Shown here one piece after another: positions 15,067 to 37,429 of a stretch of 64,000 nt of DNA. The stretch covers positions 6,573 to 70,572 of the forward strand of contig JAIBBU010000007.1 of the NCBI GenBank assembly GCA_019694515.1, read 5' to 3'. The notes beneath the pieces are model-generated. The model was not told the DNA's origin and did not search any database. It saw nothing but the letters and a program-made list of their open reading frames with translations. Position 1 is the first letter of the stretch. Each line of letters begins with the position of its first letter. Both the position numbers and the translations under genes were made by a program. This DNA is from Oligoflexia bacterium (lineage in GTDB: Bacteria > Bdellovibrionota_C > UBA2361 > JBGSMV01).

Positions 15067-15164
15067 TTCGCGCTCTTACTTGCCTTTCCTCAGTTATGCC
15101 CCTTTTCGTGCTATCTGTAAGGAGGGAGCGTCCTAAGCGCATGGCAAGCGGCGCATGGTGCATC

Positions 15165-15180
15165 CCAACATTTCTTAAGT
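15165..15180 (+). repeat. Direct repeat ccaacatttcttaagt (left copy) flanking the AT-rich cassette
   Basis: An identical 16-mer recurs at 16426-16441. A degenerate third copy (ccccaacatttttcaag) sits at 16406-16423. Confidence 0.7.
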
Positions 15181-15290
15181 GCCAGGCAAGGAGGCTTCGG
15201 TTGGTTGAGCCACCGCGAATGTGGGTGTCTACCTCGACATGGGCTGACTACGACGATTAGCGATAGGCATGGAAGAGCTTCTTCGGCCTT

Positions 15291-15812: not shown

Positions 15813-15818
15813 ACGAGT

Positions 15819-16313: not shown

Positions 16314-16425
16314 ATATACAGTATAACATTATATATAGGTAATGCAATACAATATTATCATATTGATAACAGTGAATATAATAACTTATCCGGGGTCGGC
16401 TTTCGCCCCCAACATTTTTCAAGCA

Positions 16426-16441
16426 CCAACATTTCTTAAGT
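16426..16441 (+). repeat. Direct repeat ccaacatttcttaagt (right copy)
   Basis: Exact copy of 15165-15180. Confidence 0.7.
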
Positions 16442-16609
16442 TTCAGTTGGGAGGGTGAATGTTCATAAATCCTATAAATTTTGGGTGATTAGGCACCTAG
16501 AACGCATAGCCGTTTGAGAAAAAAGCTTGGTGCACTCGGGGGGTCAGAGCCGCGGCGCAACGGATGCCGGAAGCGGGGGTAGAAATATGAGGTGGCCGCT
16601 GTCTACGCC

Positions 16610-17842: not shown

Positions 17843-18125
17843 ATTTAGTTTCCGGCCAGGTCGCAAACAGCAAGGCGGAACCTGGATATTTATGGGTAAC
17901 AATGGAGCGCCCTTTGGCGTTAAGATCGGAGCTCTGAGCAATCCGCTTGAGCACTTGAATGTGAACGGTGTGCTAGTCGGCAAGGCCGAACCTGAGAGTT
18001 TGATTCAAGTTTCGGGCCAGTAATTTCGCCATATTCCCTGCCTTTCACCCCGCATGTGAGGCGTTGTTTCTGACAGTCGCGTCAACTGGACGCATAAAAG
18101 GATAGGTAATCCGGAGAAGAAGAAG

Positions 18126-18914
18126 ATGGTTACACAAGCAAGCGCCCACCAGAGGCAGCCAGGCGATGGGGCTACCCCATGGATCTCGGCTCACCAGCCG
18201 GAGGGCAATACGCTACATGACCTGACTGCCGAGGCGATTACCTCACCGCCCGAAGCAATCATGCACAAGCTCAGCATTGAGGAGCGCATGAAAAACTATC
18301 AGAGTGGGGTCGATGCGGCCTTAGCGAGAATCGATCGGGCTTCCAGCCTCTATACCAGAAATTTCTTGATCGCCGCGGGTGCGCTATTGGCTGCATCAGT
18401 AGGTGGTTGTTTTGCAGCCAATGCGCTGGAGTCGACCGGCACGGCTATCGCGGGATTTTTTGGAATTTGCGGTGCGATTGGCCTGTTTTTTACCGGCGCC
18501 TGCACCGCGAACCATAGACAGAGCCCAGAAAATACTTTACTGAGTTTGATCTCTAACTTTAGGGAGCTACGATCTGATGCTCCTGGGCAGTTGTTGCAGG
18601 TCTCGGGGATGTCACTTGCAGAGATGGGAATCTTGGTGGAATCCATGGCCAATCCTATTCGACGGGGAGACAGTGGGACCATCAAACTCAGTACCGATAT
18701 GGCGGTCAACACGCTTCAAGAGATTGGCGAATTCATGCTGAAACACCGCTCGGAACTGGAATCAATGGGCACTTCCGTTCCTCCGGCTCAGTGGTTTGCG
18801 GCAAAATTCCGTGATTTGGCGAAGAGCCAGCAGATGTCGAAGGAGACAGCTTCGTTCGCCGGCAAAGCTTACAAATACTTTACGGAGTTCAAAGAAGCGA
18901 GCGTAGAGAGCTGA
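18126..18914 (+). CDS. Hypothetical membrane protein (2 TM)
   Basis: 262 aa. GGAGAAG ribosome-binding-site-like sequence upstream. No recognised domain. Confidence 0.45.
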   Translation: MVTQASAHQRQPGDGATPWISAHQPEGNTLHDLTAEAITSPPEAIMHKLSIEERMKNYQSGVDAALARIDRASSLYTRNFLIAAGALLAASVGGCFAANALESTGTAIAGFFGICGAIGLFFTGACTANHRQSPENTLLSLISNFRELRSDAPGQLLQVSGMSLAEMGILVESMANPIRRGDSGTIKLSTDMAVNTLQEIGEFMLKHRSELESMGTSVPPAQWFAAKFRDLAKSQQMSKETASFAGKAYKYFTEFKEASVES

Positions 18915-23311: not shown

Positions 23312-23632
23312 ATGAGACTAGTTGTTTTACGTGGTTCAGGCCAGGGAAAGGCTTTTCAGTTGGAGCAGGGTAGCAATCTGATCGGTCGCTGGGATCCCGA
23401 CAGCGGGGCCTTCCCCGAGATCGACCTGGAGGAGGAAGACCCGGAAGCTAAGGTCTCCCGCAAACATGCGGTGATCGAATGTACGGGTGAAATGGTTACG
23501 ATTGAGGACCTGGGGAGCAGAAATGGTACCTATCTAAATCGCGACCAAAAGCTCGAACCCGGTAGGCAGTACGACCTGAAAGTTGGCGACGAGCTGATTG
23601 TAGGCAAGACTTTCTTGCGGTTCGAAAATTAG
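23312..23632 (+). CDS. FHA-domain protein (single domain, about 106 aa)
   Basis: MRLVVLRGSGQGKAFQLEQGSNLIGR...VSRKHAVIECTGEMVTIEDLGSRNGTYLN is a canonical FHA domain. The ORF could start at 23255 instead. Confidence 0.7.
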   Translation: MRLVVLRGSGQGKAFQLEQGSNLIGRWDPDSGAFPEIDLEEEDPEAKVSRKHAVIECTGEMVTIEDLGSRNGTYLNRDQKLEPGRQYDLKVGDELIVGKTFLRFEN

Positions 23633-23651
23633 CTTCCGGTCTGCAGCTATT

Positions 23652-24014
23652 TTATTTTAATAGCGTTTCGATGTGATTGACCAAAACCGCAGGTTTGCAC
23701 GGTTTGGTGAGCACTAAATTACATCCTGCATCCAGGGCTTCCTGATGAACCTCGGGGTCATCGAGCGCCGTGAACGCAACTATCGGCAGCTTCAGCCCTT
23801 TGGCTCTAATTTGCCGGACGCACTCTTGCCCATTCATCTTAGGCATCATCAGGTCGATCAGAATTATATCGGGACCGACTTCCTCAACGCACTGCAATGC
23901 TGAAATGCCGTCGGTGCGACGGACAACCTCAAAACCTTTATCTTCGAAAAGATAGTCAACGATATCGAGCGCCGTGAGGTCGTCGTCAATAATTAGTATT
24001 TTTTTATTATCCAT
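23652..24014 (-). CDS. CheY-like single-domain response regulator (receiver only)
   Basis: ILIIDDD...DIILIDLMMPKMNG...LTKP. The phospho-acceptor Asp and Lys are conserved. 120 aa. Confidence 0.85.
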   Translation of the reverse strand: MDNKKILIIDDDLTALDIVDYLFEDKGFEVVRRTDGISALQCVEEVGPDIILIDLMMPKMNGQECVRQIRAKGLKLPIVAFTALDDPEVHQEALDAGCNLVLTKPCKPAVLVNHIETLLK

Positions 24015-24406
24015 CTACGCCGATACGTTTTGCTAAAATTTAGACCACTTCTACTTATATCCTATTACTTGATGCGCGGGCGCGTGGGAAAGATCCAGCG
24101 GTAAATTCAGTAACGGCGCGAAACGAAGTTTTAACCACGAGCGCGCTTGGTATAAGCAAAATCCTGTTTAAATCTACAGATTTCCGGATCTTATTAACAA
24201 CACCGTGTCTCCTATATACAGTACAGCCCAAATGGGCTTTTTAGATACTAAGCTCCGGTTGCCAGGAATTGAGTGCTGAAGTCGTTGTCGAAGTAAGATT
24301 GCGGCGCCCCGCCTCATTCCGCGCTATGAGTCCTGCGGTTGTAACATAATCCGGGAAGCGCTTTAGTATCGCATTCCGAACTGTATTTTCAGTTTGGTCA
24401 TAAAAC

Positions 24407-25747
24407 ATGTTCGCACTTGAAATAGATTTTCGCGACGGCATCTCCGATCCGGAGACCATCTTCGTGCGCCGCCCGCACGCGCTGGTTGGCGCTTCCGACT
24501 ACGCGCATGTCGTGGTGGAGGACATGAAAGAGTTGGGATATCAAATCCGCTTAACTCGCGACCTGGGGCGCAGCTTTCGTTGTCGTTTAGTCTCAAACGA
24601 ACCGGTCGAGGCCGCGGCTCATCTTGAAGGGCTGTATGAGGGAGAGGCGCTGCTGGATACGGGCAGCGTAAAGCTCCGCATCACAGCGCTTGATACAGAT
24701 TTGGTGTTCAAGGACGGCGAAACCCCGGATAGTGCAGGCGCAAGGATTCTACGGCAGGCTTGTGCTGCAGGTAGTCCAACCTTTCCAGCATTGGTGGTGG
24801 CCGGAAGCTTTCCGCTCGTGATCTCTTTTTCCGAAGAGCAGCCGCTTTACCTCGGGCGCTCCAAGCAGTGCGTAGTGCGCTTTGATTCCTCCGAGATCTC
24901 CGCGCGGCATGCGCGGATGGGATTTGAAAACGGTAAATTCTGGATCGAGGATTTGGGTTCCACGAACGGGACCTTTGTAAATCAGCAGCAGGTATCCGGA
25001 AGAGTTAATGTCGAACCTGGAGCTCCGGTAACTCTGGGACGTGAGATCTCAATTGCGGGTGTGACTTCTCCGCAGGAGCTGGCGCAAGCGCTGCACGCAG
25101 AGGAGCCGCGCATCGATCGCAATGCGCCGCTGGCGAATAGATTTCCCGTGTTGATTTCCACCTCCGAAGTCGCCCGGCCAGCTCGAATGGTTTTAAGTGC
25201 CGGCGCAACGGTGACGATCGGGCGGGACCCATCCAGCGATATGTGGATTGGGGCTCCGCATGTATCGCGCAAGCACTGTGCGGTGTTCTTGCATGATAAC
25301 GGTACACTATCGGTCACCGACCACAGTACCAATGGGACCGCCTATACAGGCGGGGTCCTAAAACGTGGCAGCTCGATTCAGGTACGGGAAAGGCCGGAAA
25401 TCCTCGATTTGGGCAGCGGAGTGACGGTGGCGGTCTGTTTAAACGAGGAACAGGAGCGCGTCTTTATCGCTGCGCATGGCTCGCCGCTGGCTTTTGGCGA
25501 ACCTGAAAGAGACCTGCCCAAGCGGGAAAGCCCTGTCATCGCTCATGGCACCCGCTTTTCCGGAGAAGATACGATCTGGAATACCCAACAGATGCGGGCG
25601 CATATGGAGCGCAGCTTCGTGGTATGGCTGCTGGAATACTTCAGATCGTGCGGGTTTTTCGGACGGGCCGCTTTGTTTTGTCTCGTGTTCGCCTTTATAA
25701 TGGTTTTGGCTTTTATTGTATTGATTTTGGGACGCGTTTTCCTGTAG
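24407..25747 (+). CDS. Multi-FHA-domain protein with C-terminal TM anchor; candidate SctD (YscD/CdsD-like inner-ring component)
   Basis: Three FHA-like segments, e.g. LYLGRSKQCVVRF...ARHARMGFENGKFWIEDLGSTNGTFVN and VTIGRDPSSDMWIG...SRKHCAVFLHDNGTLSVTDHSTNGTAY. C-terminal hydrophobic helix FCLVFAFIMVLAFIVLILG. Sits at the head of the sctJ operon. Confidence 0.7.
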   Translation: MFALEIDFRDGISDPETIFVRRPHALVGASDYAHVVVEDMKELGYQIRLTRDLGRSFRCRLVSNEPVEAAAHLEGLYEGEALLDTGSVKLRITALDTDLVFKDGETPDSAGARILRQACAAGSPTFPALVVAGSFPLVISFSEEQPLYLGRSKQCVVRFDSSEISARHARMGFENGKFWIEDLGSTNGTFVNQQQVSGRVNVEPGAPVTLGREISIAGVTSPQELAQALHAEEPRIDRNAPLANRFPVLISTSEVARPARMVLSAGATVTIGRDPSSDMWIGAPHVSRKHCAVFLHDNGTLSVTDHSTNGTAYTGGVLKRGSSIQVRERPEILDLGSGVTVAVCLNEEQERVFIAAHGSPLAFGEPERDLPKRESPVIAHGTRFSGEDTIWNTQQMRAHMERSFVVWLLEYFRSCGFFGRAALFCLVFAFIMVLAFIVLILGRVFL

Positions 25748-25823
25748 CAGAAGGCTGCGCGCGGACCGCGTGAATTTTTGGTTTTTGCAGTTTTTGGTTT
25801 TCAGATAGTAACGGGAGAGAGTC

Positions 25824-26855
25824 ATGGCAACTGACAGTACTGAATTGACCTTCGTTCGATGCCCTTCATGCCGCAGCTTAGTGCCGGCTTCTCAGACACG
25901 CTGCCGGATGTGCGGTGCATCGCTGGATGCTGGAACCCAGCAGGGTGGCGATGATGCCGCGCGGAAGTCGGGACGAGTCAAGCAGCGTACTATGTCGCAG
26001 CCGCAAAGCGACTTAAATTCGGCTGCCGATCAGCTGCGCAAAGAGCATAAGAGCTCCGGTATGGAAGAGCTTCCGGATAGTGGCGATGAGATCTCAGTCG
26101 ATGATCCGTTGAGCGGATATGTCGAAGAAGTCGAGAGCGCCGAAACGGATGCGCCGGCTGAAGCCCCGGCGGCAAAGAGCGCTAATGGTGGCGGGTATGC
26201 ATCGCATGAACGGCCTAAAGAGGCTTCGCCGATGCCTCCCAAGCCGCGCGATGAGCAGAAACCGAAAGTATTCGCTGAGAGCGGTAGAAAGCAGAGTGGC
26301 GGTTTGTCCTTCAATAAGGAGCGATCCGAGCCGCCGGTTGCACGCAATTTGGCTTCCGCTGCCGAGTCTGACGATGCTTGGAGCAGTGTCAATGAAGAAT
26401 TACCGGTTGAAGAACCGGTGCGTGAGCCGCGTGCTTCACGTGAAAAGGAACAGCGCCACACACCGCCGTCAGCTGCGCCAGCTCGCGAAGGAGCTAAGAA
26501 GGCTGAGCAGCGCCCCGGCCGGCTCTTTGGGTGGCTGGTAAGCTATGCCAATCCGGATGGAAGCGCCTTAGAGCTGCGCGAAGGGAAGTTCTTCGTCACA
26601 GCCGGCAGCCTCAAGCCTAGTGATATGATCATTCAAGACCCTAGCATTTCGACTCCGCACGCTTTGGTCAACATCAGCGCGGCGCAGGGATTCGCAGTGC
26701 AGGACCTGATGAGCGATCGCGGTGTCTGGATTAGGCGTCGTGAAGGCGACACCTACCAGCGTGAGGAGAGTCTGCAGGTTAAGCATGGCGACTGGCTGCG
26801 GTTTGGTGATGTTGAGTACCTGGTGACTTTGATCGCACACGTCGGCGCGAAGTAA
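25824..26855 (+). CDS. Zinc-ribbon plus disordered linker plus C-terminal FHA-domain protein
   Basis: N-terminal CPSCRSLV...CRMCG zinc ribbon. Long Ala/Glu/Pro/Ser-rich low-complexity region. C-terminal FHA (GKFFVTAGS...SISTPHALVNISAAQGFAVQDLMSDRGVWI). Confidence 0.7.
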   Translation: MATDSTELTFVRCPSCRSLVPASQTRCRMCGASLDAGTQQGGDDAARKSGRVKQRTMSQPQSDLNSAADQLRKEHKSSGMEELPDSGDEISVDDPLSGYVEEVESAETDAPAEAPAAKSANGGGYASHERPKEASPMPPKPRDEQKPKVFAESGRKQSGGLSFNKERSEPPVARNLASAAESDDAWSSVNEELPVEEPVREPRASREKEQRHTPPSAAPAREGAKKAEQRPGRLFGWLVSYANPDGSALELREGKFFVTAGSLKPSDMIIQDPSISTPHALVNISAAQGFAVQDLMSDRGVWIRRREGDTYQREESLQVKHGDWLRFGDVEYLVTLIAHVGAK

Positions 26856-26978
26856 GAACGTGTGCCGAGGGGGCCCAAATGCTAAGCTTTGGGCTGCCCC
26901 TGACAATGCTCGGGTGGCCGGACGCTTGCGGTTGCGGCACCGGAAAATCTCTAGGAAAGAGAACGTCCTGGAACTGAA

Positions 26979-27854
26979 ATGGGTTATCGAACTAGGTTAA
27001 GCGCATTCAAGGCACTTCGCATCGGCGTCTTAGTCGGCGTTTTGCTGCTGATTTCGGGATGCAATACCTCCGTAGTGCTGAATGACCTCTCGCAGTCAGA
27101 AGCCTTGGAAGTCATAGCGGCGCTCAATGCCACCGGCATTAGCGCCTATTCAGCGGAAGATTCGGGCGCCCGGGGAAAATTTAGTGTGACCGTTGATTCA
27201 GCCCGCTATTCCGAAGCGGTCGCAATCATCAATGACAAACGGCTGCCGCGCCGCAGCGAATTTCGCAAGATGATTGAACCCAAAGGGCTGCTGCCGAATT
27301 CCCGCGAGCTTGAAGCGTTGCGGGTGGATAAGGCGCGCGCGATCGAACTTAAAGAACTTCTCGAGAATCATCCTGATATTGCCTCTGCCGAAGTCACGGT
27401 TCGTCAAAAATTTCTGGCTGAGGATGAAGCCCCCTCAGTTGGAGCTATGGTCGTAACGCGGTCCGGCTCGACGCTATCCACTGATCAGCTGCGCACGATG
27501 ATCCAAAGTTTCGTGCCCGGTATTAATCCTGAGCGGGTGGTCGTGGTTGCACACGCGCTGGATTCTTCAGGCAATGTGTTCAAGGCCGAAGGAATCCTGA
27601 ATGATAATCAGAAACTTATCCATGTGCCGCTAGCGGGCTTCCTGCTGGGTTGGCGTGTGGCTGAAGCCGATCAGAATGGATTGGCGATTACGATTGTGGC
27701 CTTCGTCCTGGCGGTAGGAATTCTAGGGGCAATTTTGGGTTACTCCTACGGTTCATTCAAACGTTCGGAAGATGCTTTAAATGATGCACTCCCGGAACCC
27801 GCAATTCGGGCGGGGCGCTTTGAACGACCGGTTAAGACTTTACCGGAGGAATAA
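26979..27854 (+). CDS. sctJ: Type III secretion inner-membrane ring lipoprotein SctJ (YscJ/EscJ/PrgK family)
   Basis: Signal peptide plus LISGC lipobox, then LSQSEALEVIAALNATGISA (compare YscJ [20 protein letters not shown]). About 290 aa with a C-terminal TM. A lipoprotein of this size argues against flagellar FliF. Confidence 0.85.
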   Translation: MGYRTRLSAFKALRIGVLVGVLLLISGCNTSVVLNDLSQSEALEVIAALNATGISAYSAEDSGARGKFSVTVDSARYSEAVAIINDKRLPRRSEFRKMIEPKGLLPNSRELEALRVDKARAIELKELLENHPDIASAEVTVRQKFLAEDEAPSVGAMVVTRSGSTLSTDQLRTMIQSFVPGINPERVVVVAHALDSSGNVFKAEGILNDNQKLIHVPLAGFLLGWRVAEADQNGLAITIVAFVLAVGILGAILGYSYGSFKRSEDALNDALPEPAIRAGRFERPVKTLPEE

Positions 27855-28073
27855 ATGGATTTGCAGCGTTTTCGAGCTCTATCAGAGAAAGATCGCGCCT
27901 TAGTGGCCGTGGCTGTATTAATGGATGGCCGCGATGCGGGTGTGTATTTGGAGAATGATGCTCAGAGCGGTGCGGTGTTAAAGCGGGCGGCGGATGACTT
28001 GGCAGCACAAGAACTCGAGCTGCGAATGACCTACGCTGCTACGCAGTTGCGGGCAGCGCTGAAGGAGGGGTAG
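27855..28073 (+). CDS. Small helical protein of the T3SS operon (function unknown; in the SctK/SctI position)
   Basis: 72 aa. Its ATG starts immediately after the sctJ stop (TAA at 27852-27854, ATG at 27855). Confidence 0.4.
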   Translation: MDLQRFRALSEKDRALVAVAVLMDGRDAGVYLENDAQSGAVLKRAADDLAAQELELRMTYAATQLRAALKEG

Positions 28074-28391
28074 GTGGATAGCCCCGAGCGGCGTGAGGAG
28101 ATTGCGGCATATATCGATAAGGTCAATGCGGAGCTGGCGAAGCGCCGCAAGCGGGTGCTGGAGCTGGAGAAGGAATTAAGTGATTTGCAGATGCAGGTAG
28201 AAGAGGCTGGTACAAAGATCAGAAGAGGGGTGGGGGATGCGGCCGTTGCCGCCGCTTCAGCCAGCTTTATGGCCTCCGTCGGCAAACGCCGTAAATTATT
28301 GGATGAGCAGTTAGGGGAGGCGCGCAGCGATGTACAACGAGCCGAGGATCGGCTTAGGACCGCCACCCAGGAAATGGATCAATTGAATTAG
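28074..28391 (+). CDS. Coiled-coil protein of the T3SS operon (candidate SctL/SctO, FliH/FliJ-like)
   Basis: 105 aa, charged heptad-repeat-rich. GTG start immediately after the upstream TAG, with GGAGGGG upstream. Confidence 0.45.
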   Translation: MDSPERREEIAAYIDKVNAELAKRRKRVLELEKELSDLQMQVEEAGTKIRRGVGDAAVAAASASFMASVGKRRKLLDEQLGEARSDVQRAEDRLRTATQEMDQLN

Positions 28392-28405
28392 GGAGCAACT
28401 TAGCC

Positions 28406-29434
28406 GTGAAGGCCCAAGCAGGAACGGACAGCGATATTTCAGTGGTACCTTGGGAGCCCGAGAAGACTCTTGAGAAGATGGCGCTGCTGCAGGCCAGGCT
28501 GTCGCGGGGGTTTTTGCGCTCTGACCCTTCGAAATGGTTCCCGGGATTTGCGATGCAGTGGATTCCGCTTACCAGCGCCTTCGGTGTTGAGCTGCAGATA
28601 CGAACTGTCGAGCCGGTGCTGGCCGCACCCCGCGGTTTGAGCGGCTACGTTGGTGCAGTGGACGATGAGCCGATTGCAGTGGGGATGGAAGATCGAGATG
28701 CGCGGCTGTTGACGGCAGCTTTCTGTAGTGGCGCACTGGCGGGAGCTCAGGGGGTCCTGCGGGAATATTTGGCGCGCCGCTTCATAACCAGCATGGCTTT
28801 ATCATGGAGCGGTCCCGAGTCTTCGGTGGTGACCTTTGATCGCAGCATGAATATGTCGCATATGCGCGAGTCGGCAGCGATTCGGATGGAACTCTTGGTC
28901 AATGATCAGGCCTGCAATCTATGGGTCTTGATGGGGAAATTTTTGGTTGAACGTTTGGACGCATTGTGGCGCAAACAGGTGCGTTCCACTGCGCGCCAGG
29001 AGTCCGGTGCAGCGCGCGAACTAGCTCTAGAGGTTACACAGTTAGCTGTGCCGCCTTCGCTTCTAGCGGAGTACATGAAGCCTCGGGCAATCATCGATCT
29101 CGAGACGATCGTCTCAGACCGGGTCTTGCTCCGCGAAGGCGGCAAGCCGCTTTCCTATGCGCGGTTGGTGAACATCGAGGGTCGCTACGGCATCTCCTTG
29201 CTAGACGAGCCGGTAGCCAACCCTAGACTGCCCGACGGTACTACCAGACTAGCTGTCGAGCTGGGGCGCATTGCGGTCGATGGCAATCAATCAGCGGAAT
29301 TTCTTCAGAATGGCGCAATCTGGGAGACCGGTCTGAAACTGGGTCCCGCGGCCAACATGGTAATAAACGATGAAAAGGTCGGCTCTGCCGAGCTGATGAT
29401 CTTTGAGGGGCGCTTTGCGCTGCGGGTAACCTAG
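28406..29434 (+). CDS. sctQ: Type III secretion cytoplasmic-ring protein SctQ (YscQ/FliN/FliM family; C-terminal SpoA domain)
   Basis: The C-terminus LQNGAIWETGLKLGPAANMVINDEKVGSAELMIFEGRFALRVT is a FliN/SpoA-type domain. A second SpoA-like segment lies upstream (VLLREGGKPLSYARLVNIEGRYGISLL). Confidence 0.7.
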   Translation: MKAQAGTDSDISVVPWEPEKTLEKMALLQARLSRGFLRSDPSKWFPGFAMQWIPLTSAFGVELQIRTVEPVLAAPRGLSGYVGAVDDEPIAVGMEDRDARLLTAAFCSGALAGAQGVLREYLARRFITSMALSWSGPESSVVTFDRSMNMSHMRESAAIRMELLVNDQACNLWVLMGKFLVERLDALWRKQVRSTARQESGAARELALEVTQLAVPPSLLAEYMKPRAIIDLETIVSDRVLLREGGKPLSYARLVNIEGRYGISLLDEPVANPRLPDGTTRLAVELGRIAVDGNQSAEFLQNGAIWETGLKLGPAANMVINDEKVGSAELMIFEGRFALRVT

Positions 29435-29526
29435 TTCTCGGTCGAGCGCTTTGAATCAATCTGCATTTGTCAGCCACACCCCTTAAGTGGGTAGCCTCAA
29501 AAGTTGCGATTGCTTATAGTTGAAGC

Positions 29527-30111
29527 ATGGATGGCTTTCTGCAGTCGCTGCTGGCAATTTTAGTCTTCACCGGCTTTGTTAAGATCTTCACAGCTCTGTG
29601 TATTGCGCGCTACGGTCTGGGCCTCGATCAAGCGGGCTTCGGCATCGTCATCGGAGTTTTGGCTTTGGCCCTCTCGATCTTCGCAGTGGAGCCGCAGCTT
29701 AGGCCCTATGGGGGCTGGAGCATCCTGAATGGTGGTGAAAACCAGAAGGTAGATCTGCCTAGGACCTTTACGCCGTTCTTGGTCAAGCATTCGGATGCGA
29801 AAATTATTTCGGAACTTGAAAAGCTGCGCCCAAATTCCGAAGGGCAAAAGAACGACACACCGGAGTTCTCATTACTGACAGTGAGTTTTTTGCTGAGTGA
29901 GTTGAAATCAGCATTCGAAATTGGGCTGTTACTTCTCATTCCGCTGATCATCATCGATCTTTTAACCTCCAATATTTTAATGGCGCTGGGTATGCAGCAG
30001 CTTTCCCCGGCGTTGGTCTCCCTGCCGATTAAGTTGCTGCTATTCTTAGCGCTGGATGGCTGGACTCTGTTTAGCGAAAAGCTGCTCAATTCATATACGG
30101 GGGCTGGATAA
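29527..30111 (+). CDS. sctR: Type III secretion export-apparatus protein SctR (YscR/FliP family)
   Basis: LIPLIIIDLLTSNILMALGMQQLSPALVSLPIKLLLFLALDGW matches the FliP/YscR signature (...GMMMLSP...PFKLLLFVLVDGW). No cleavable signal peptide, as in non-flagellar SctR. Confidence 0.85.
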   Translation: MDGFLQSLLAILVFTGFVKIFTALCIARYGLGLDQAGFGIVIGVLALALSIFAVEPQLRPYGGWSILNGGENQKVDLPRTFTPFLVKHSDAKIISELEKLRPNSEGQKNDTPEFSLLTVSFLLSELKSAFEIGLLLLIPLIIIDLLTSNILMALGMQQLSPALVSLPIKLLLFLALDGWTLFSEKLLNSYTGAG

Positions 30112-30366
30112 ATGGACGCCGTATTATACAGCATGTTTATTGAGGCTATTCGCGTACTGCTGTTGGTCGGGGTGCCATCGGCGCTGCTGATCGGCTGTGC
30201 AGGGGTATTGGCTGGCGCGTTTCAGAGCGTTACCTCGATTCACGATCCGGCGATTGGCTACACTGCGCGGCTGCTGGCGCTGATTGCGGCGTTGTATTTC
30301 TTGGGCGGATTTTTTTGGGAACGGGTGCGGAACCTGCTTGAGCAGGCACTGCTCGCACAGTCATGA
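30112..30366 (+). CDS. sctS: Type III secretion export-apparatus protein SctS (YscS/FliQ family)
   Basis: 84 aa, two TM. Overall FliQ-like pattern (AIRVLLLVGVPSALLIGCAGVLAGAFQSVTSIHDPAIGY). ATG immediately follows the sctR stop. Confidence 0.8.
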   Translation: MDAVLYSMFIEAIRVLLLVGVPSALLIGCAGVLAGAFQSVTSIHDPAIGYTARLLALIAALYFLGGFFWERVRNLLEQALLAQS

Positions 30367-30980
30367 TCTTAGAAATCTCATTGCTGACGATGCTGCTCGG
30401 CGGCGCCCTGTTGTTCGGAATGTGGCCGGGACTGGTGATGTTAGCGGGGACTTTTGCCTACGCCGCCTCTCAGTACCATCCCGCTGCCGTTGGTCTGGTA
30501 GTCTTAACCTGTGCCGCGGTGACGGCGGTTCCGCTTAGTGCCGCAGTGTGCGGTGCCGCGCTCGAGCGCCATACTTTTGTGCATGTGCGACGTAATGGGC
30601 AGCTGAATGCGCTGGTCCTTGCCACTGCTACAACCGCATTCTTGCAGACAGGGCTGCCGGTTTCCTTTTTCACTGTGATTGAACGTGCGCAATTGCATGG
30701 CAAAGCGCTCGATTATGGGCAGGCTATCGCAGGGATTATCAGCGCCGCACTGTCAGTCGGTTCATTTGCCGCGCTGCTAATCATGGGTGTCGTATTGCTG
30801 GCAGAGGTGCCGCTAGTGATTGCCGGCCGCATCGGAGAATTTAAAGCAGACCATCACATCACACTTTTTCGGCCGCTGCTTGTGGTATTTGTGCTTTCCA
30901 TGGCGATGAACCTCTTGCTGGGCTTGTTTTTCGAGGAGCTCGCACCGTTACGCATTTTGCCGCTGGGGAATCAACCATGA
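30363..30980 (+). CDS. sctT: Type III secretion export-apparatus protein SctT (YscT/FliR family), short form
   Basis: 205-aa polytopic membrane protein in the canonical R-S-T-U position. ATGA overlaps on both sides. Confidence 0.6.
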   Translation: MILEISLLTMLLGGALLFGMWPGLVMLAGTFAYAASQYHPAAVGLVVLTCAAVTAVPLSAAVCGAALERHTFVHVRRNGQLNALVLATATTAFLQTGLPVSFFTVIERAQLHGKALDYGQAIAGIISAALSVGSFAALLIMGVVLLAEVPLVIAGRIGEFKADHHITLFRPLLVVFVLSMAMNLLLGLFFEELAPLRILPLGNQP

Positions 30981-31639
30981 GCGAGAGGACGGAATGGCCG
31001 ACTGCTGCCAAGCTGGGAGAACTAAGGGAGCGCGGTTTAGTGCCGGTCAGCAGGCTGGCGCTTTGGTCTGGCGCGTTAATCGGCTGTGTTATTGCAGTCT
31101 TTGTTCTAGGCAGCACCTGGAATTTCCCGCAGCGCTGGCTGGAAATTGGTGCGGCGACCCAAGCAGATTCTCCGAATCTAATGGCCGAGCTAGCGGCGCA
31201 TCAGGGCGAGATAGTTAAACTGTTATGTCTGCCGGCTTTGGGAGCAGCTCTCTTGGTAATCCTTGCGGGGGTAGTTCAAACCCGCTTTCTTTTCAGGCCT
31301 GCCACGCTCGCGCCTCAGGGTGAGCGGTTGTGGAACCCAGCAGCAGCAAGCTTTGCAAGGCCCATTGCCCGCCCCCTATCGGCGGTGCTCTGGCTGGTGC
31401 TTGGAATTTTTTGTGGATTCCTGCTTTTTAGTTCGCAGTCGGCGCTGCTCTTAGGACTGCTAAATCAGAGCGTTGCTCCGGGGATTGCCCGGCTGACCGA
31501 CATGCTGAAGAGCTATGCCTTGATCGCCGCAGCGGCTGCTTTGGCAGGGGCTATTCTTGGTTGGATTGCGGCACGCCTCATTTTTATGCTGAGACATCGC
31601 ATGACTCGCCGTGAGGTGCAAAGCGAGGTTGGTGAGTAA
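30977..31639 (+). CDS. sctU: Type III secretion SctU (YscU/FlhB family), membrane domain only; lacks the C-terminal autocleaving (NPTH) domain
   Basis: The N-terminus RTEWPTAAKLGELRERGLVPVSRLA matches the FlhB/YscU N-terminus (KTEAPTPKRL...G.VPKS.EL). Four TM segments. The ORF ends at RMTRREVQSEVGE, equivalent to the MSKQEVKDE linker that normally precedes the cytoplasmic domain. Confidence 0.7.
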   Translation: MSERTEWPTAAKLGELRERGLVPVSRLALWSGALIGCVIAVFVLGSTWNFPQRWLEIGAATQADSPNLMAELAAHQGEIVKLLCLPALGAALLVILAGVVQTRFLFRPATLAPQGERLWNPAAASFARPIARPLSAVLWLVLGIFCGFLLFSSQSALLLGLLNQSVAPGIARLTDMLKSYALIAAAAALAGAILGWIAARLIFMLRHRMTRREVQSEVGE

Positions 31640-31708
31640 CTCGGTGTAATTTGTGGCTTTGCCTGATCTGGCCGCCCCGAGCTATCATCAGCCTGAGTTA
31701 GTAGAACC

Positions 31709-31966
31709 ATGAAACGCAGCATATTTGACCCCCCTGAAGCCTTCTCGTTGTCCCCGCTACTCGCATTGCTGCCGCAAAAAGGACAGCTCTCAAAATTAGA
31801 GACCCTCTCGGCTTCGCTCTTTGCCCGCTATGAAAGGGTTACAGGGCTGCTGGGCGAGATTGCGGCGGGCTCCTCCCCTGAGTTAGAAACCCGTCTTTCG
31901 CGGGAGCAAAATATGCTGCGCCAGGTCTTGGAGTGGCTCAACATTAAGCCCGAAGGTCAGGCATGA
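31709..31966 (+). CDS. Small hypothetical protein, ATGA-coupled to the TPR chaperone gene (candidate chaperone partner or substrate)
   Basis: 85 aa. Its stop overlaps the next start. No needle (SctF) signature. Confidence 0.4.
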   Translation: MKRSIFDPPEAFSLSPLLALLPQKGQLSKLETLSASLFARYERVTGLLGEIAAGSSPELETRLSREQNMLRQVLEWLNIKPEGQA

Positions 31967-32397
31967 ACCAGGTGCGTCCGCGAGTGCCCTCTGAAATCCT
32001 GAAGCGCGGTTATACCGACGACGAAATCGCGAACATTTACGAATTAGGCCGGCTATTCTTAGAGAATGGCGATCTAAGACGCGGTGAGACGATTATGTTG
32101 GGCTTGCTGGAGATCATGGGCGAATACTCACCGGCCTGGTTAGCCATGAGTTACATTCATTTTGCGAACAAGGCCACCGAGTCGGCAGTAAACGCGGCGC
32201 AAAACGCGTTGAAGCACGATCCCGAAAGTGTCGAAGCCATGTTGGCCCTGGTGGCGGGGCTTCTTACTCTGGGCGACTTTAATAGCGCCGGTACATATCT
32301 GGGTGAGGTGGGTGAGAAATTAGACGCCGGACTTAGCGACGATCCGCGAGTCGTACGTTTCTATAAGGCCATGCTGGCGCGTTATCAAAATCGCTGA
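31963..32397 (+). CDS. TPR-repeat protein, candidate T3SS class II chaperone (SycD/LcrH/CesD-like)
   Basis: 144 aa. Three TPR-like helical hairpins (GDLRRGETIMLGLLEI...; AWLAMSYIHFANKATESAVNAAQNAL; AMLALVAGLLTLGDFNSAGTYL). Size and location are typical of translocator chaperones. Confidence 0.55.
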   Translation: MNQVRPRVPSEILKRGYTDDEIANIYELGRLFLENGDLRRGETIMLGLLEIMGEYSPAWLAMSYIHFANKATESAVNAAQNALKHDPESVEAMLALVAGLLTLGDFNSAGTYLGEVGEKLDAGLSDDPRVVRFYKAMLARYQNR

Positions 32398-32445: not shown

Positions 32446-33045
32446 ATGAGCAGAGCACGTCTCGTACCCTTCCTGATATTTTTGAGCTGCGCCGTCGCGC
32501 TGCAAATTCTAACCATGTGGTTAATGGGGCGTGTGTGGTGGTGCGGCTGCAACGAGTTTTTCATCGCATCGTGGAGTATTTGGAGCCGCCATAATTCGCA
32601 GCATCTGATTGATCCCTACTCATTCAGCCATCTCTCTCACGGGTTGATATTTTTTCTTTTTTTGAGATGGTGGGGGCCGCGGCCGAATGTCGATCTAAAG
32701 TTGGCGATCGCCTGTACGATCGAGATTGTTTGGGAGATTGCCGAGAATACCAGCTTCATAATTGAGCGCTATCGTAGTGTAACGATCTCCCTGGACTATT
32801 TCGGTGATAGCATCGCCAACTCGGTTGCTGATTTGATCTGCTGCCTCGCAGGATACTTGCTGGCACAAGCGCTCGGAGTGCGCCGTACGATCTTGCTATT
32901 CATCATGATCGAAATAGTACTGCTTCTCACGATCAGAGACTCGCTCACGATCAATGTGATCATGCTGCTTTGGCCGTTGCAATCGATTCTGCGTTGGCAG
33001 CAGGCAGGACTGCTGGAGCTTGGTACGATGCTAATGCCGACTTGA
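32446..33045 (+). CDS. Polytopic membrane protein, DUF2585/UPF0314-like
   Basis: 199 aa. Motif WWCGCNEFF early in the sequence. Five or six hydrophobic helices. The family assignment is tentative. Confidence 0.45.
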   Translation: MSRARLVPFLIFLSCAVALQILTMWLMGRVWWCGCNEFFIASWSIWSRHNSQHLIDPYSFSHLSHGLIFFLFLRWWGPRPNVDLKLAIACTIEIVWEIAENTSFIIERYRSVTISLDYFGDSIANSVADLICCLAGYLLAQALGVRRTILLFIMIEIVLLLTIRDSLTINVIMLLWPLQSILRWQQAGLLELGTMLMPT

Positions 33046-33092: not shown

Positions 33093-33443
33093 CTATTTTT
33101 TGGATTTAGGATCGGTCGCTTCTTGCGCGGACATCAATCCGATATCCACGGCCATCTTCACGGCATTGACGACTTTTTGCTTGTTGGCATTAGAGGCCGA
33201 CTTCCCGAACATGTCTTCGGCTTCTTCCTCGATCAGCCGCAGGAGCTCTTCGCGCTCGGCCATAGTCATGGAACGGGTTGCCCCGCGCTTACCAATGCCG
33301 CCGGCCTTGGTTACACCCCCGATGGCGGAGGTTGGCTTGATCCCCTGAACATTCCCGACAGCTTGAGTACCCTCAACCTCGGTCGCCCGGTTGGTGGAGG
33401 TTACCTCACCGACTTTTTTCTTATCGCCGATCTTTTTGGTCAT
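33093..33443 (-). CDS. Small hypothetical protein downstream of the sigma factor (candidate anti-sigma/FlgM-like, speculative)
   Basis: Start at MTKKIGDKKK, with GGAGGA 5 nt upstream. Disordered Gly/Thr-rich N-terminal half and helical C-terminal half (MTMAEREELLRLIEEEAEDMF...). Confidence 0.45.
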   Translation of the reverse strand: MTKKIGDKKKVGEVTSTNRATEVEGTQAVGNVQGIKPTSAIGGVTKAGGIGKRGATRSMTMAEREELLRLIEEEAEDMFGKSASNANKQKVVNAVKMAVDIGLMSAQEATDPKSKK

Positions 33444-33453
33444 CTGTTCCTCC

Positions 33454-34251
33454 TCATCCACTCCGCAGCAAGCGCCGGAACTCTCCCTGTTCAGACTTCT
33501 TTCGTAACTTTATCGCAACTTGCTTCAGTCCGGGACGTACTTTTACGGCTGTGCGCCGTTTGCCCTTCGATAGGCTTTCAAGCAGATGCTCCAAAAGCAC
33601 TTTATGTTCTCTAATTACATTTAATTCGTCCGTTTCCCACTCATCGGCGACGTTACGTAGCGAGCAGCCCTCCCAGTAGATCTTCCAAATCAGGGATTGA
33701 TGAACGGGGTCCATGTCAGCCACCACTTCGATCATCTTCTTGTAATCAAGGGCTTCCTCAGGAGTGGCAGTAGCCAGACCCTGCCGCGCGGCGATCAAGG
33801 TGGCGCCGATCAAGAGTTGTCGGACCGCCATGCGGGTATCGGCTTCATCATTACCTGAGGATTCGTCGCTCAGCGGCAGCTGTCCGGTTCGTAAGTCCGG
33901 ATAGACATTTAATAATTCAGCAGAAATCTCGCGGGTTTGAACTTCCGCGCGTGAACCGCTGCGCCAGCCGCGTGATTTTCGCGCGGCTTCAGTTGAGGCT
34001 TCATGAATGCGCTTGCGCGCATAGCCGCGGAAAGGCACTCCCCGGGAGGGTTGGAAGCGGCGCGCACAGAACAGCAGCGCCTCCATAGCGGCTCCATCCA
34101 GCCCGTCCAGCTGCCAGTCCAAATTCCAGCCCCGGGCGACCGACCGGGCGATACTTTCGGCCCAGCCACGATGCTCCAGCGCCAGCTGATCAGCTTCCTC
34201 AATCGGGAGGGTAGGATGTTGACCCACTGTCGAAGGCGTTTTTGTCTGCAT
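33454..34251 (-). CDS. Sigma-70 family RNA polymerase sigma factor (sigma-28/FliA-like; regions 2 and 4)
   Basis: Region 2: ADQLALEHRGWAESIARSV...DGLDGAAMEALLFCARRFQPSRGVPFRGYARKRIHEA. Region 4: SLIWKIYWEGCSLRNVADEWETDELNVIREHKVLLEHL. Start chosen at MQTKTPS (34251); the ORF extends to 34374. Confidence 0.65.
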   Translation of the reverse strand: MQTKTPSTVGQHPTLPIEEADQLALEHRGWAESIARSVARGWNLDWQLDGLDGAAMEALLFCARRFQPSRGVPFRGYARKRIHEASTEAARKSRGWRSGSRAEVQTREISAELLNVYPDLRTGQLPLSDESSGNDEADTRMAVRQLLIGATLIAARQGLATATPEEALDYKKMIEVVADMDPVHQSLIWKIYWEGCSLRNVADEWETDELNVIREHKVLLEHLLESLSKGKRRTAVKVRPGLKQVAIKLRKKSEQGEFRRLLRSG

Positions 34252-34559
34252 ATCCGCTAAGTTAACTGATGCTGGAAAGCTCTCCTCGGACTCTAGCTTA
34301 TTAGATCCATCTCCGGCCAGCCGGGGAGCGGATAAGTTGCGGAACCGATGTGACTTATCTCCCCGATAATTCAATTAATTCAATAAGTTAACAAAAAACT
34401 GAAGTGCTTATACGTATTCGGCTGATAGGTGGCAAGAGGACCTGTTACGCCCTGCAACGGGAGGTTTGGGCGGACATCTTCTCGACAGTACGTCCTCGCA
34501 ACGTACCGAGTTCGAAAAGGGAAAGCTCACTTCCGGTTGTCAGTTAGGAGATGGAATCA

Positions 34560-35459
34560 ATGCCTGCAAGTAATCTCAAAGTAAAAGATTTCGATCATGC
34601 AGTTGACGCCAAGCGCGCCGTTGTTAAGACAGCGAAGAGCGCGAAGGTCGTTTCGCTTTTCAAAGCTCCCCGCGCCGGCATTCTAACCCAGCGTCAAAAA
34701 GATAATTTAGTTATCACTTACCAGATCAAAGCTCGTAAGATGGCATTTAGCATTTTGCGTCGCTGGCATTCGCGTCTGGATCTGCAGGAAGTTCACAGCA
34801 TCGTAGATCTATCGCTGTGTGAGGCCGTTAAGCATTTCAATCCCACCAAGGGTGCGAGCTTCTTGACCTTCCTGTTCTACCATCTGCGCGGCAATTTGAT
34901 TCGCGCCGTAACAACCGCGGCTAAACTGAATGCAATTCCGCTGAGCGATCTGGATCCGATGCAGCCCGAGGATCAAGATTCTGCGAAGCAATCTGATGGA
35001 CGTGGTATCAGTGCCGCAGAGGTAGCCGACGCGCTTTCGAGCCGCGAAGCACCGCTGCCCGATGAGGTCTTGGCTCGTAAAGAATTGATCAGAGCAAGTT
35101 TGGATGCGTGTCAGAAGCTGGATACGCTGGAGCGTGAAGTCCTGTTCAGAATCTTCTTGCAGGAAGAGCAGCTGCTGGATGTCGCGGCTTCGCTTGGTTA
35201 CAGCCGCTGCCATATCTCACGGGTTAAGCGCCGTGCATTAGAAAGTTTATACGGCGAGGTATGTCGCGCCGTGTATGGCGAGGAAGGAGCATCGATGAAA
35301 CGGCCTGAGGTGGAGGAGTTAGAGGCGGTAGCAACACGCCGTCCAATTCACCGCCGTAAGCCGCGCGCCGGAATGAAGGCCGGCAAGTTCAGAGCGAGTG
35401 CTGGTGCGCTTAAGCGTTCGATGGATAAGGCAAATTCAATTGTAGCAGCCTATTCCTAA
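34560..35459 (+). CDS. Sigma-70 family RNA polymerase sigma factor (sigma-28/FliA-like), divergent from the upstream one
   Basis: Region 2: ITYQIKARKMAFSILRRW...EVHSIVDLSLCEAVKHFNPTKGASFLTFLFYHLRGNLIRAV. Region 4: LDTLEREVLFRIFLQEEQLLDVAASLGYSRCHISRVKRRALESL. AGGAG lies 9 nt before the ATG at 34560. Confidence 0.7.
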   Translation: MPASNLKVKDFDHAVDAKRAVVKTAKSAKVVSLFKAPRAGILTQRQKDNLVITYQIKARKMAFSILRRWHSRLDLQEVHSIVDLSLCEAVKHFNPTKGASFLTFLFYHLRGNLIRAVTTAAKLNAIPLSDLDPMQPEDQDSAKQSDGRGISAAEVADALSSREAPLPDEVLARKELIRASLDACQKLDTLEREVLFRIFLQEEQLLDVAASLGYSRCHISRVKRRALESLYGEVCRAVYGEEGASMKRPEVEELEAVATRRPIHRRKPRAGMKAGKFRASAGALKRSMDKANSIVAAYS

Positions 35460-35722: not shown

Positions 35723-37429
35723 TTGACCGAAACCCGATCAAGCTCCGGCACAATACTGCTGCTACTGGCCTTAGCCTTAGTTCCATTTGTATATCTTTGC
35801 GGCCTTCTGCCGGTCGGTTCGTCCACCGAAGCACGTGAGCTGCTGGTAATTGATACGATCTTGCGTGACCATGCCTGGCTCCTACCGCTCCGCAATGGGC
35901 AGGTGCCATCTAAGCCGCCTCTCTATCACTGGCTAAATGCGATCATAAGTTTCCCGGTCGGCGCTGCTTCTGTATGGCTGGCGCGCCTTCTTTCAGCATT
36001 GCTGGGGGGATTGACCGTGTATTCGACCGCGTTGATTGCAGATGCGGTGGGCGGCAGACGTCCGCGCCTGACACTGCTCAGCGCCGCGCTGCTCTTATCC
36101 ACCTATGGCTTCGTAAAGCTTATGGGCGAAGCCCGCGTGGACATGCTCTTCGCATTCTTGAATACGCTGGCGATGTTCATCGTGCTGCGCCGTTTTGTCC
36201 CTGATTTTACTAGCCGGACGGGGCGCCTCATTCCGCTCGAGGATTTAGATCTTAATCTTTTTTATGCGATCTGCGGCATTAGTGTACTGGCGCGCGGCCC
36301 CCTTGGGATAGTGCTCCCCCTCCTTAGCCTTGGGGCGGTTTTAATCTATACAGCTGGCTTTCGGGCTGCCGTGGTTTACCTATTACGTCCGCGAGCAGGC
36401 TGGTTCATAGCAGCAGCAATCTTTTTGCCGTGGTATTGCAGCGCATTTTTTCGTGGAGGCGATGCCTTCATCAACCGGCAGCTGATCTTTGAGAATATGC
36501 GCCGCTTTTTCGGCGGGGAGCAGGTGAACACTGAAGTTTGGTGGTTCTATCTGCCTTCGTTGCTGCGCACTGCGTTTCCGGTTTCGCTGCTGTTTCTCAT
36601 TTTTCATCGTCGGCTGCGGGATCCGCAGGCCCGCATAATCTCCATCTGGTTCTGGACCGGCTTTCTGTTTTTTTCGCTCGCCTCTGGTAAGCGCCATTCC
36701 TATCTTTTACCTCTTTACCCCGCGTGTGCCGTGTTCGCCGCGCTCTATCTCGAACAGTGGCTTTCACGGCTTTCCGATCGCAGTGGCGAGCGTCTGCGCA
36801 GCATCGCGCGCGCCTTAAATCCCGGAACGATATTCGCAGGGGCGATCTTGGTGTTAGAGGCCTTGCGGGTGTTTGATGAGTTTCACAACCCGGCGGTGCT
36901 GAACGCTAAGATTAGCTTTAATCTGATCTTAGTTCGTACCGAGCTGTTATTGAGTGCCTGCGGAGTTGTGATGCTAGCGTTGTCTATGCTACCAAGCGCG
37001 CGCGCTTATTACCGCAGCCCAGTGCTCTCATGGAGCGCGATTTTGATCGTTTTTTATGCGGCCATCCTGTTGGGGGACGGGTTTAAGAATCAGCTTAAGG
37101 AGTATCCAGCCCAGAGTGCTGCACTGGCTGCAGCCATTCCCGCCAACCAAAAACTAGTGGTTATGAAGAGTGAGTGGGACGAATCCTTTGACGTATTGTT
37201 ATATTATTTGAAACGTCCGGTGATTGTGCACCCTCCGGACGCCCAACCGCTACCGGGCCTGCTGCTGGCTAGCCGTAGCTGGATCGATACCCAGCGTGTG
37301 AAGTGGGTGCAAGCTGGCTGGTCGATGCAGGAAAGGCTCAAGTTAAGCTCCTCATATGATCGGGTGCTCGGGCGGGTTGAGCGCGAGAAAATCCTGTTAG
37401 AGCTTGTGCGATCCGGGCCGCGCCAATAG
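35723..37429 (+). CDS. Glycosyltransferase family 39/83 (ArnT/PMT-like) integral membrane protein
   Basis: The N-terminal loop EARELLVIDTILRDHAWLLPLRNGQVPSKPPLYHWL is typical of undecaprenyl-phosphate-sugar-dependent glycosyltransferases (ArnT-like). 11 or more TM, 568 aa. Confidence 0.7.
   Translation: MTETRSSSGTILLLLALALVPFVYLCGLLPVGSSTEARELLVIDTILRDHAWLLPLRNGQVPSKPPLYHWLNAIISFPVGAASVWLARLLSALLGGLTVYSTALIADAVGGRRPRLTLLSAALLLSTYGFVKLMGEARVDMLFAFLNTLAMFIVLRRFVPDFTSRTGRLIPLEDLDLNLFYAICGISVLARGPLGIVLPLLSLGAVLIYTAGFRAAVVYLLRPRAGWFIAAAIFLPWYCSAFFRGGDAFINRQLIFENMRRFFGGEQVNTEVWWFYLPSLLRTAFPVSLLFLIFHRRLRDPQARIISIWFWTGFLFFSLASGKRHSYLLPLYPACAVFAALYLEQWLSRLSDRSGERLRSIARALNPGTIFAGAILVLEALRVFDEFHNPAVLNAKISFNLILVRTELLLSACGVVMLALSMLPSARAYYRSPVLSWSAILIVFYAAILLGDGFKNQLKEYPAQSAALAAAIPANQKLVVMKSEWDESFDVLLYYLKRPVIVHPPDAQPLPGLLLASRSWIDTQRVKWVQAGWSMQERLKLSSSYDRVLGRVEREKILLELVRSGPRQ

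Follow-up and report, generated by a model that had tools for sequence, protein, structure and literature searches.

A strongly diverged, conserved gene cluster related to type III secretion in Bdellovibrionota, with a remodelled export gate and no engine genes in cis

What might a set of genes related to those of type III secretion systems (T3SSs) encode, if it specifies a ring protein and the subunits of an export gate and is accompanied by no gene for an engine, an ATPase, a secretin or a needle? This question is raised by a locus at positions 23312–32397 of a 64 000 nt stretch (here called the window) of contig JAIBBU010000007.1 (112 kb), from the metagenome-assembled genome (MAG) of an Oligoflexia bacterium. 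A preliminary description, made from the sequence alone, had presented the locus as a compact core cluster of a non-flagellar T3SS (NF-T3SS). We examined it with Pfam (gathering scores), NCBIfam (curated cut-offs), PDB-profile and hhalign comparisons, six-frame jackhmmer searches, and AlphaFold2 (AF2) models that were compared with known structures using Foldseek. The T3SS-derived block is a strongly diverged, native gene set with a remodelled export gate, and it includes no engine, ATPase, secretin or needle gene in cis. We estimate a probability of roughly 0.55 that it represents an undescribed, vertically inherited family of needle-less, T3SS-derived inner-membrane complexes that are wired to phospho-signalling, and that the window holds the complete local gene set of one member.

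All open reading frames (ORFs) in the block are on the forward strand, except one that encodes a response regulator. As had been proposed, five products could be assigned to the T3SS families SctJ, SctQ, SctR, SctS and SctU by Pfam matches that exceed the gathering scores. The FHA domains of three proteins and the TPR repeats described below pass these scores as well. SctJ (26979–27854, +), the inner-membrane ring lipoprotein, matches YscJ_FliF with 49 bits (cut-off 24; E = 8e-13). It includes the lipobox LISGC and a C-terminal transmembrane (TM) helix followed by a conserved cytoplasmic tail. The helix and tail are present in 8/8 orthologues and the lipobox in 7/8, the other (in locus L002) being unscored with an over-extended ORF start. 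The SctQ-like cytoplasmic protein (28406–29434, +) is made up of a family-specific N-terminal 200 aa and two tandem SpoA (FliN-like) domains, and matches FliMN_C twice (34 bits); its best PDB-profile match was YscQ-C (6e-4), followed by HrcQ2 and FliN. The export-gate subunits SctR/FliP (29527–30111, +; FliP, 131 bits, 6e-38) and SctS/FliQ (30112–30366, +; Bac_export_3, 38 bits, 1.7e-9) are followed by a 205 aa polytopic membrane protein at the SctT position (30363–30980, +) and by SctU/FlhB (30977–31639, +; Bac_export_2, 70 bits), which is represented only by its N-terminal four-helix membrane domain. Between sctR and sctU, neighbouring genes either abut or share 4 nt, the ORF at the SctT position overlapping both sctS and sctU by this amount. 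As several ORFs overlap or abut, translational coupling is suggested.

Scores against the NCBIfam T3SS models were all far below the curated cut-offs, at 70 bits for SctJ (TIGR02544, cut-off 162), 136 bits for SctR (cut-off 179) and 51 bits for SctU (cut-off 358). This would explain why automated annotation left proteins of the cluster unnamed: SctR and the protein at the SctT position are labelled hypothetical in the MAG record (K1X83_054xx tags). With scores below these cut-offs, the family is missed by current annotation pipelines. The forward-strand ORFs were found in the order previously given, but a separate gene for a 106 aa FHA protein (23312–23632) and the minus-strand receiver gene had been overlooked. 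Also missing from the preliminary description were the loss of the SctU C-domain, the loss of the methionine gasket and a linked pair of sigma-factor genes.

The cluster was found in at least 11 other distinct loci, in Bdellovibrionota MAGs and metagenomes (L001, L002, L005, L006, L007, L009, L010, L065, L070, L072 and short contigs), and this synteny in related genomes agrees with the earlier suggestion of a lineage-specific variant. MAGs that carry it include JBIKUD01, JAAYZI01 and CAYQVO01. In L001, L002 (to which L003 and L004 are identical), L005, L009, L010 and L072, both the gene order and the flanking housekeeping genes are the same, with RNase G and GAF genes upstream and genes for a PMT-type glycosyltransferase, MgtC and Ham1 downstream. 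In L072 the cluster lies inside a contig of 895 kb (ENA ERZ22682847, k127_57730339), and it is also present in L070, which represents a deeper branch. Only the second half of the cluster, sctR-S-T-U with the 85 aa, TPR and sigma-factor genes described below, is present in L006 and L007, where it is found behind unrelated genes. Thus, the cluster consists of two separable modules. Additional genes are found between sctQ and sctR in three loci, namely an Na/H antiporter gene in L001, a U32 peptidase gene in L070 and a glycosyl hydrolase gene in L072. The shortest version is in L065 (9962–11828), where sctR, sctS, a 153 aa membrane ORF and the 85 aa and TPR genes, with no sctU, lie between recA/lexA and unrelated genes in a 131 kb contig. 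This suggests that sctR and sctS, with the 85 aa/TPR pair, make up an irreducible unit.

The flanking RNase G shares 70–76% identity with that of the window, while the values for cluster proteins are 40–47% for SctR, 37–40% for SctQ, 31–39% for SctJ, 32–42% for SctS and 26–31% for SctU. For the protein at the SctT position, identity was mostly undetectable, with 16–25% in the family alignment. In the same comparison, the sigma-like protein reaches 58–61%, the 72 aa protein 45–63% and the TPR protein 44–59%. Gate proteins are the slowest-evolving parts of canonical systems (PMC3459982), whereas here they evolve faster than the accessory proteins, and the usual order is reversed. The GC content is 50–58% throughout the window, with no compositional break at the cluster; promoter and terminator scans and Rfam and tRNA searches returned nothing informative. 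Taken together, the conserved order at deep divergence, the shared flanks and the normal GC content indicate a cluster that is native, old and under selection. Proteins identical to those of the window were found on short scaffolds (L067 and L069) of a second public assembly (ENA ERZ28613422), indicating that the same strain has been sampled independently.

The most conspicuous alteration to the gate is in SctU. The N-terminal motif and the four TM helices are kept, and the protein covers positions 2–219 of the 335 in the Bac_export_2 profile. It stops 11 residues past HRMTR, the motif at which the cytoplasmic domain would normally start, and the autocleaving C-domain is absent. The earlier assignment to SctU is therefore correct for the membrane domain but does not extend to the C-domain. 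All of the orthologues are 210–273 aa long, so the truncation is family-wide. When the SctU fragment was used to scan 1.84 billion representative proteins with HMMER, 220 matches were returned. Among the best 150 of the 220, which are 50%-identity representatives, 138 are no longer than 230 aa, with NPTH in none, and in 97 the median distance from the HRMTR motif to the C-terminus is 11 residues. Full-length FlhB/SctU proteins appeared only near E = 1e-8. As 138/150 representatives are equally short, the truncated SctU represents a large and diverse family and not an assembly accident. The nearest longer relative examined, P0174 (344 aa), is encoded in an ordinary flagellar fliO-P-Q-R-flhB locus. 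No intermediate with a full-length SctU was found, the nearest longer relatives besides P0174 being on contigs too short to provide context.

A second alteration lies in the pore. SctR could be aligned over its full length with the solved FliP and SpaP, and starts directly with TM1, with no signal peptide. However, the methionine gasket, which has been reported to be conserved in T3SSs and critical for their function (PMC8239009), is replaced by M-Q-Q, the pore loop in the window reading G-M-Q-Q. This loop is G-M-x-M in 68/68 canonical homologues and polar in 7/7 family members, which have V, I or M and then polar residues. In SctS, alignment with canonical FliQ showed that both positions of the salt bridge between subunits, one acidic and one basic, have been kept, which speaks for preservation of the helical R/S assembly itself.

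The third alteration concerns SctT. A polytopic membrane protein is encoded at the conserved position, in line with the preliminary description, but its similarity to SctT/FliR is undetectable. No match was found in Pfam, NCBIfam or PDB profiles, comparison with a 14-sequence FliR/SctT profile gave an hhalign probability of 0.1%, and a homologue search returned only the query itself. The AF2 single-sequence model was of low confidence (pLDDT 60) and the Foldseek output meaningless. In L070, the gene at this position does match Pfam Bac_export_1 (3.2e-8), and an attempt to bridge from the L070 protein to that of the window was negative. The length at this position is 271 aa in L070 and approximately 200 aa in the window, and the 153 aa membrane ORF of L065 has no detectable similarity. 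The 205 aa protein is presumably a highly diverged SctT, judged by its position only.

Neither SctV (FHIPEP) nor an F1/FliI-type ATPase or a secretin was recognized when the main remaining ORFs of the window were scanned with Pfam, and the six-frame jackhmmer searches, which were positive in the outgroup loci, detected nothing like FlhA/SctV or FlhB_C in the window or in the loci of the family, whichever frame was read. The earlier statement that SctV, SctN and the secretin are out of reach holds for the whole window. SctV, SctN and secretin were also not found in the approximately 7 kb past the right window end that could be examined in the second assembly of this strain. In the family loci, the ORFs of more than 300 aa that matched a Walker A pattern encode HerA-like, RecA or unassigned proteins, and none was identified as a FliI/SctN-type ATPase. 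With the window included, sctV, sctN and sctC were not found within about 10–30 kb in 12/12 loci. Large ORFs of SctV or SctN size in L065 were considered, and encode a Wzz-type tyrosine kinase, RecA and a trypsin. No needle or rod similarity was found in the 72 aa and 85 aa ORFs of the cluster, although small, fast-evolving proteins could be missed. Genes for FliF, FliG, Mot proteins, the rod and the hook are absent from the window and from the loci of the family, while flagellar genes were seen in the flagellar outgroup loci.

The front end of the cluster is made up largely of genes for putative phospho-signalling proteins. The small stand-alone FHA protein (106 aa; 23312–23632, +; Pfam FHA, 1e-14) is 52–68% identical in syntenic loci, and its translation includes the canonical phosphothreonine-binding residues GR, SxxH and NG. 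The divergently placed gene that follows (23652–24014, −) encodes a receiver-only, CheY-like response regulator (Pfam Response_reg, 1.9e-26) in which the acidic pocket, Thr and Lys are kept, as read from the translation. No other gene of the cluster is as well conserved, identity being 76–83% in L001, L002, L005, L009 and L010. Next is the gene for a tail-anchored multi-FHA protein of 446 aa (24407–25747, +), which had been labelled SctD-like and credited with three FHA domains. Pfam finds two (9e-30), following a conserved N-terminal domain, and the canonical GR, SxxH and NG residues are kept in FHA domains 2 and 3. A single TM helix (residues 423–441) is at the extreme C-terminus in 7/7 orthologues, leaving no periplasmic domain and hence no periplasmic ring domain, and the PDB-profile matches are to the phosphothreonine readers ArnA, GarA/OdhI and Rad53 and not to SctD. 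The SctD label was consequently dropped. The gene downstream (25824–26855, +) encodes a 343 aa protein with a zinc-ribbon, a long disordered linker and a C-terminal FHA domain (Pfam FHA, 3e-7); the zinc-ribbon matches are weak, and syntenic orthologues are 36–54% identical.

No Ser/Thr kinase gene was found in the window. In L070 (1–996; ENA ERZ28614920, scaffold_272), the gene that immediately precedes the multi-FHA gene encodes an 852 aa Ser/Thr kinase with HEAT repeats. A hybrid PAS histidine kinase with a receiver domain is encoded 11 kb downstream of the cluster in the window (43417–45867, −), and a histidine kinase gene is directly upstream of sctR in L007 (2408–3964). Either could be a candidate partner of the receiver-only regulator.

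Four small proteins complete the cluster. The start of the first gene (27855–28073, +) abuts the stop of sctJ, and its 72 aa product, a conserved helical protein of no known family, is 45–65% identical in seven loci. It had no Pfam or PDB-profile match, and the AF2 single-sequence model (pLDDT 79.6) was all helical, with no Foldseek match. The possibility that it is a remnant of the FliG N-domain was rejected after comparison with a FliG profile from nine flagellar loci gave an hhalign probability of 0.45%. The adjacent gene (28074–28391, +) encodes a 105 aa coiled-coil protein that is possibly FliJ/SctO-like. Its matches to Pfam FliJ (0.0067) and YscO (0.037) are both sub-threshold and its PDB-profile matches are to generic coiled coils only, while its counterpart in L070 matches FliJ over the full length (6e-4). 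This gene is present in only some family members and is absent from L002, L009 and L010. At the other end of the cluster, behind the gate genes in every locus, is the gene for an 85 aa protein (31709–31966, +) in which a proline-rich N-terminus is accompanied by two helices. This protein has no Pfam or PDB match and is 36–57% identical in nine loci, including L065. Its gene precedes, in every case, that of a 144 aa protein with three TPR repeats (31963–32397, +; Pfam TPR_19 and TPR_14), which is 38–59% identical in nine loci. The size and context of the TPR protein fit a T3SS class II chaperone, and the match to NCBIfam LcrH_SycD (0.0024, 17.6 bits) is sub-threshold (cut-off 104.8).

A sigma-factor module is located downstream. 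The gene for a sigma-70-family-like protein of 306 aa (33454–34374, −; Pfam Sigma70_r2, 0.0011; NCBIfam sigma70-ECF and FliA_WhiG sub-threshold), which is 58–63% identical across syntenic loci, is divergent from that of a group-3-like sigma factor resembling FliA/WhiG/SigF (34551–35459, +). The latter matches Pfam Sigma70_r2 and r4 and exceeds the cut-off of the NCBIfam sigma-70 superfamily model with 54.7 bits, its matches to SigBFG and FliA_WhiG being sub-threshold. The pair is linked to the cluster in 8/12 loci (the window, L001, L002, L006, L007, L010, L070 and L072). Overlapping the end of the sigma-like gene, which is upstream of it, is an ORF for a 122 aa protein (33093–33461, −) with a disordered N-half rich in Gly, Val and Thr and a conserved helical C-half, and this gene is syntenic in the seven other loci that have the pair. 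A FlgM-like anti-sigma factor was considered for the 122 aa protein and set aside, as there was no Pfam or PDB support and no FlgM similarity. Going by gene position only, it could be an anti-sigma factor. Only in the window genome is the sigma module separated from the TPR gene by a DUF2585 membrane protein gene (32446–33045).

Elsewhere in the window there are four large genes for membrane proteins that resemble PMT/DUF2298-type glycosyltransferases (35723–37429, 49562–51667 and 59589–63963), of which the first, encoding a PMT protein of 568 aa, shows synteny with the cluster in L002, L070 and L072. An operon of the Bat/MoxR type, with MoxR (AAA_3), DUF58-VWA and DUF4350 genes, is at 51680–56656. 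Five consecutive ORFs at 14155–18914 (303, 173, 164, 457 and 262 aa) have no Pfam match, and a 600 aa cysteine-rich protein with a MopE-type metal-binding motif is encoded at 2091–3893.

If the block does encode an inner-membrane complex of its own, SctJ would form a ring that houses a helical channel of SctR, SctS, SctT and the N-terminal part of SctU. SctQ may dock underneath via the tail-anchored FHA protein, which would stand in for the cytoplasmic part of SctD, and assembly or opening might be controlled both by Ser/Thr phosphorylation, read by the FHA proteins, and by His–Asp phosphotransfer through the receiver. A small, dedicated and TPR-chaperoned cargo would then be moved across the inner membrane only, and the 85 aa protein and/or the 122 aa sigma-linked protein are candidates for this cargo. 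By analogy with FlgM/FliA and IpgC/MxiE, such transport would probably link the neighbouring sigma factors to a signal from the envelope or from contact. No energy source is encoded in cis. The energy might come from SctV and SctN supplied by another locus, or the derived gate may no longer need them. Several points weigh against this proposal. To our knowledge, every characterized T3SS needs SctV. SctQ, the TPR chaperone and a possible FliJ/SctO normally work with SctN and SctV, which favours a hidden third module, and the splitting of the cluster in L006 and L007 makes further dispersed parts plausible. The identity of SctT, taken from position, is unproven, and the cargo and the sigma coupling are proposed from gene position only, the 122 aa protein being without similarity to FlgM.

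These objections lead to the main rival explanation, in which the cluster is one or two modules of a complete but scattered NF-T3SS, comparable to that of Chlamydia, with sctV, sctN, sctL, a separate SctU C-domain, the secretin and the needle and translocator genes located elsewhere, the whole forming an injectisome used on prey or a host. We regard this as possible but doubtful. NF-T3SSs with scattered genes have been described (Abby and Rocha 2012, PMC3459982), there are contact-dependent predators among the Bdellovibrionota (PMC12428579), and the cluster is itself split into two modules in L006 and L007. SctQ, the TPR chaperone-like protein and the proteins behind the weak FliJ/SctO-like matches would, moreover, normally serve an ATPase and SctV. 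However, the expected genes are absent within about 10–30 kb in all 12 loci, and the SctU C-domain and methionine gasket, both regarded as essential, have been lost family-wide. Evolution has been faster in the gate than in the accessory proteins, the reverse of what is usual, and our literature search returned no T3SS described in Bdellovibrionota. A further, tentative reading is an autonomous minimal channel of the FliPQR type (an SctJ ring, an R/S/T gate, the SctU membrane domain and SctQ) in genomes that have neither SctV nor a T3SS ATPase. Its opening would be driven or licensed by Ser/Thr and His–Asp phospho-signalling and not by an SctV/SctN engine. Such a channel could be the product of regressive specialization or a surviving early offshoot from the path between flagellum and injectisome, and could export a single regulatory cargo and so switch a dedicated sigma factor.

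Missing core genes, a truncated SctU and a fast-diverging, shrinking protein at the SctT position might also be expected if the block were what is left of an ancestral T3SS, decaying and no longer functional, as might the loss of the FliJ-like gene in some lineages and of SctU in L065. Yet the ORFs are intact, their order has been kept, despite deep divergence, in 11 or more further loci, overlaps of start and stop codons have been kept and residues at structural positions are invariant. As the same truncated SctU is found in at least 138 representative clusters and non-functional NF-T3SSs are deleted rapidly (Abby and Rocha, PMC3459982), decay is very improbable. Least probable, and barely credible, is that the block is a diverged piece of a flagellar export apparatus. 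The nearest outgroup matches to SctR by identity include flagellar FliP, among the SctU relatives examined the nearest of full length (P0174) belongs to a flagellar system, and the tree of SctR, which had been suggested as a way of placing the system, does not decide the matter. In this neighbour-joining tree the family is recovered with a bootstrap value of 78% (55% with L070 included), but its deeper groupings with FliP or with NF-T3SS SctR have values of only 30–36%. On the other side, the ring protein is an SctJ-type lipoprotein and not FliF, SctR has no signal peptide, no locus includes FliG, FliF, rod, hook or Mot genes, and NCBIfam scores favour SctR and SctJ, the best model for SctR being EscR/YscR at 136 bits against 107 bits for FliP. 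Both features used earlier to call the system injectisome-type, the lipoprotein SctJ with its LISGC lipobox and an SctR that starts at TM1, were confirmed. The block is closer in gene content to non-flagellar systems, and the SctR tree does not decide between the two types. Of the NF-T3SS core set used by Abby and Rocha and by TXSScan (sctJ, N, Q, R, S, T, U and V, with sctC), the block has clear representatives of sctJ, sctQ, sctR and sctS, the membrane half of sctU and a candidate sctT.

Our literature search returned no report of a T3SS-like system in Bdellovibrionota, nor of an SctU without its C-domain, and a relative of the T3SS in this form, with no needle or motor genes beside it, appears not to have been described previously. 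In the usual account of T3SS evolution, the flagellum gave rise to a needle-less intermediate and this to the injectisome. We know of such an intermediate only from the Myxococcales. The family described here would be a second conserved needle-less lineage, far more reduced, in another predatory phylum that was formerly deltaproteobacterial, and it is diverse: the SctU fragment by itself accounts for 138 or more clusters at the 50% identity level. It is without three features that are considered indispensable, namely the C-domain of SctU, the methionine gasket and, at least in cis, SctV and SctN. The family thus offers a natural experiment on what a FliPQR-type channel can do without them, and in it a T3SS-type gate is linked to FHA/kinase signalling and to sigma factors.

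Among known systems, the chlamydial T3SS is likewise dispersed among several loci, includes a J...R-S-T block and has FHA domains on CdsD. The FHA domains on an inner-membrane partner are a likeness to the present family, but here the FHA protein is tail-anchored and has no periplasmic domain, whereas CdsD has a periplasmic ring domain and Chlamydiae have a full-length SctU, SctV, SctN, a secretin and a needle. Control of an envelope machine by FHA proteins and a Ser/Thr kinase is found in the Fha1-PpkA pathway of type VI secretion systems, and archaeal ArnA combines a zinc-finger with an FHA domain. ArnA was the top PDB match for the FHA domains, and the cluster also encodes a zinc-ribbon-FHA protein; a kinase gene adjoins it only in L070. 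We know of no description of FHA/kinase control of a T3SS-type gate.

Solved gates of the FliP5-FliQ4-FliR1-FlhB1 type (6F2D, 6S3L, 6PEM and 6R6B) share with this cluster the R-S-T-U order, the overlapping ORFs and the salt-bridge positions of SctS. They differ in having the FlhB/SctU cytoplasmic domain, in place of which there is nothing here, while the gasket is polar here and the protein at the SctT position unrecognizable. The closest parallel is the needle-less NF-T3SS of the Myxococcales (T3SS* of Myxococcus xanthus), which is likewise non-flagellar and without secretin, needle or translocon genes. These systems, found as short and long loci, are vertically inherited in a former deltaproteobacterial predator lineage and were once dismissed as relics (PMC3459982, PMC10849154). 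On the published description, the complete export apparatus and the ATPase are still encoded in their loci, along with SctJ and the inner rod (PMC3459982), which sets them apart from the loci examined here, where sctV and sctN were never linked. The two also differ in that SctU has no C-domain and the methionine gasket is gone in the family described here, and in that genes for FHA proteins, a receiver and sigma factors are an integral part of it.

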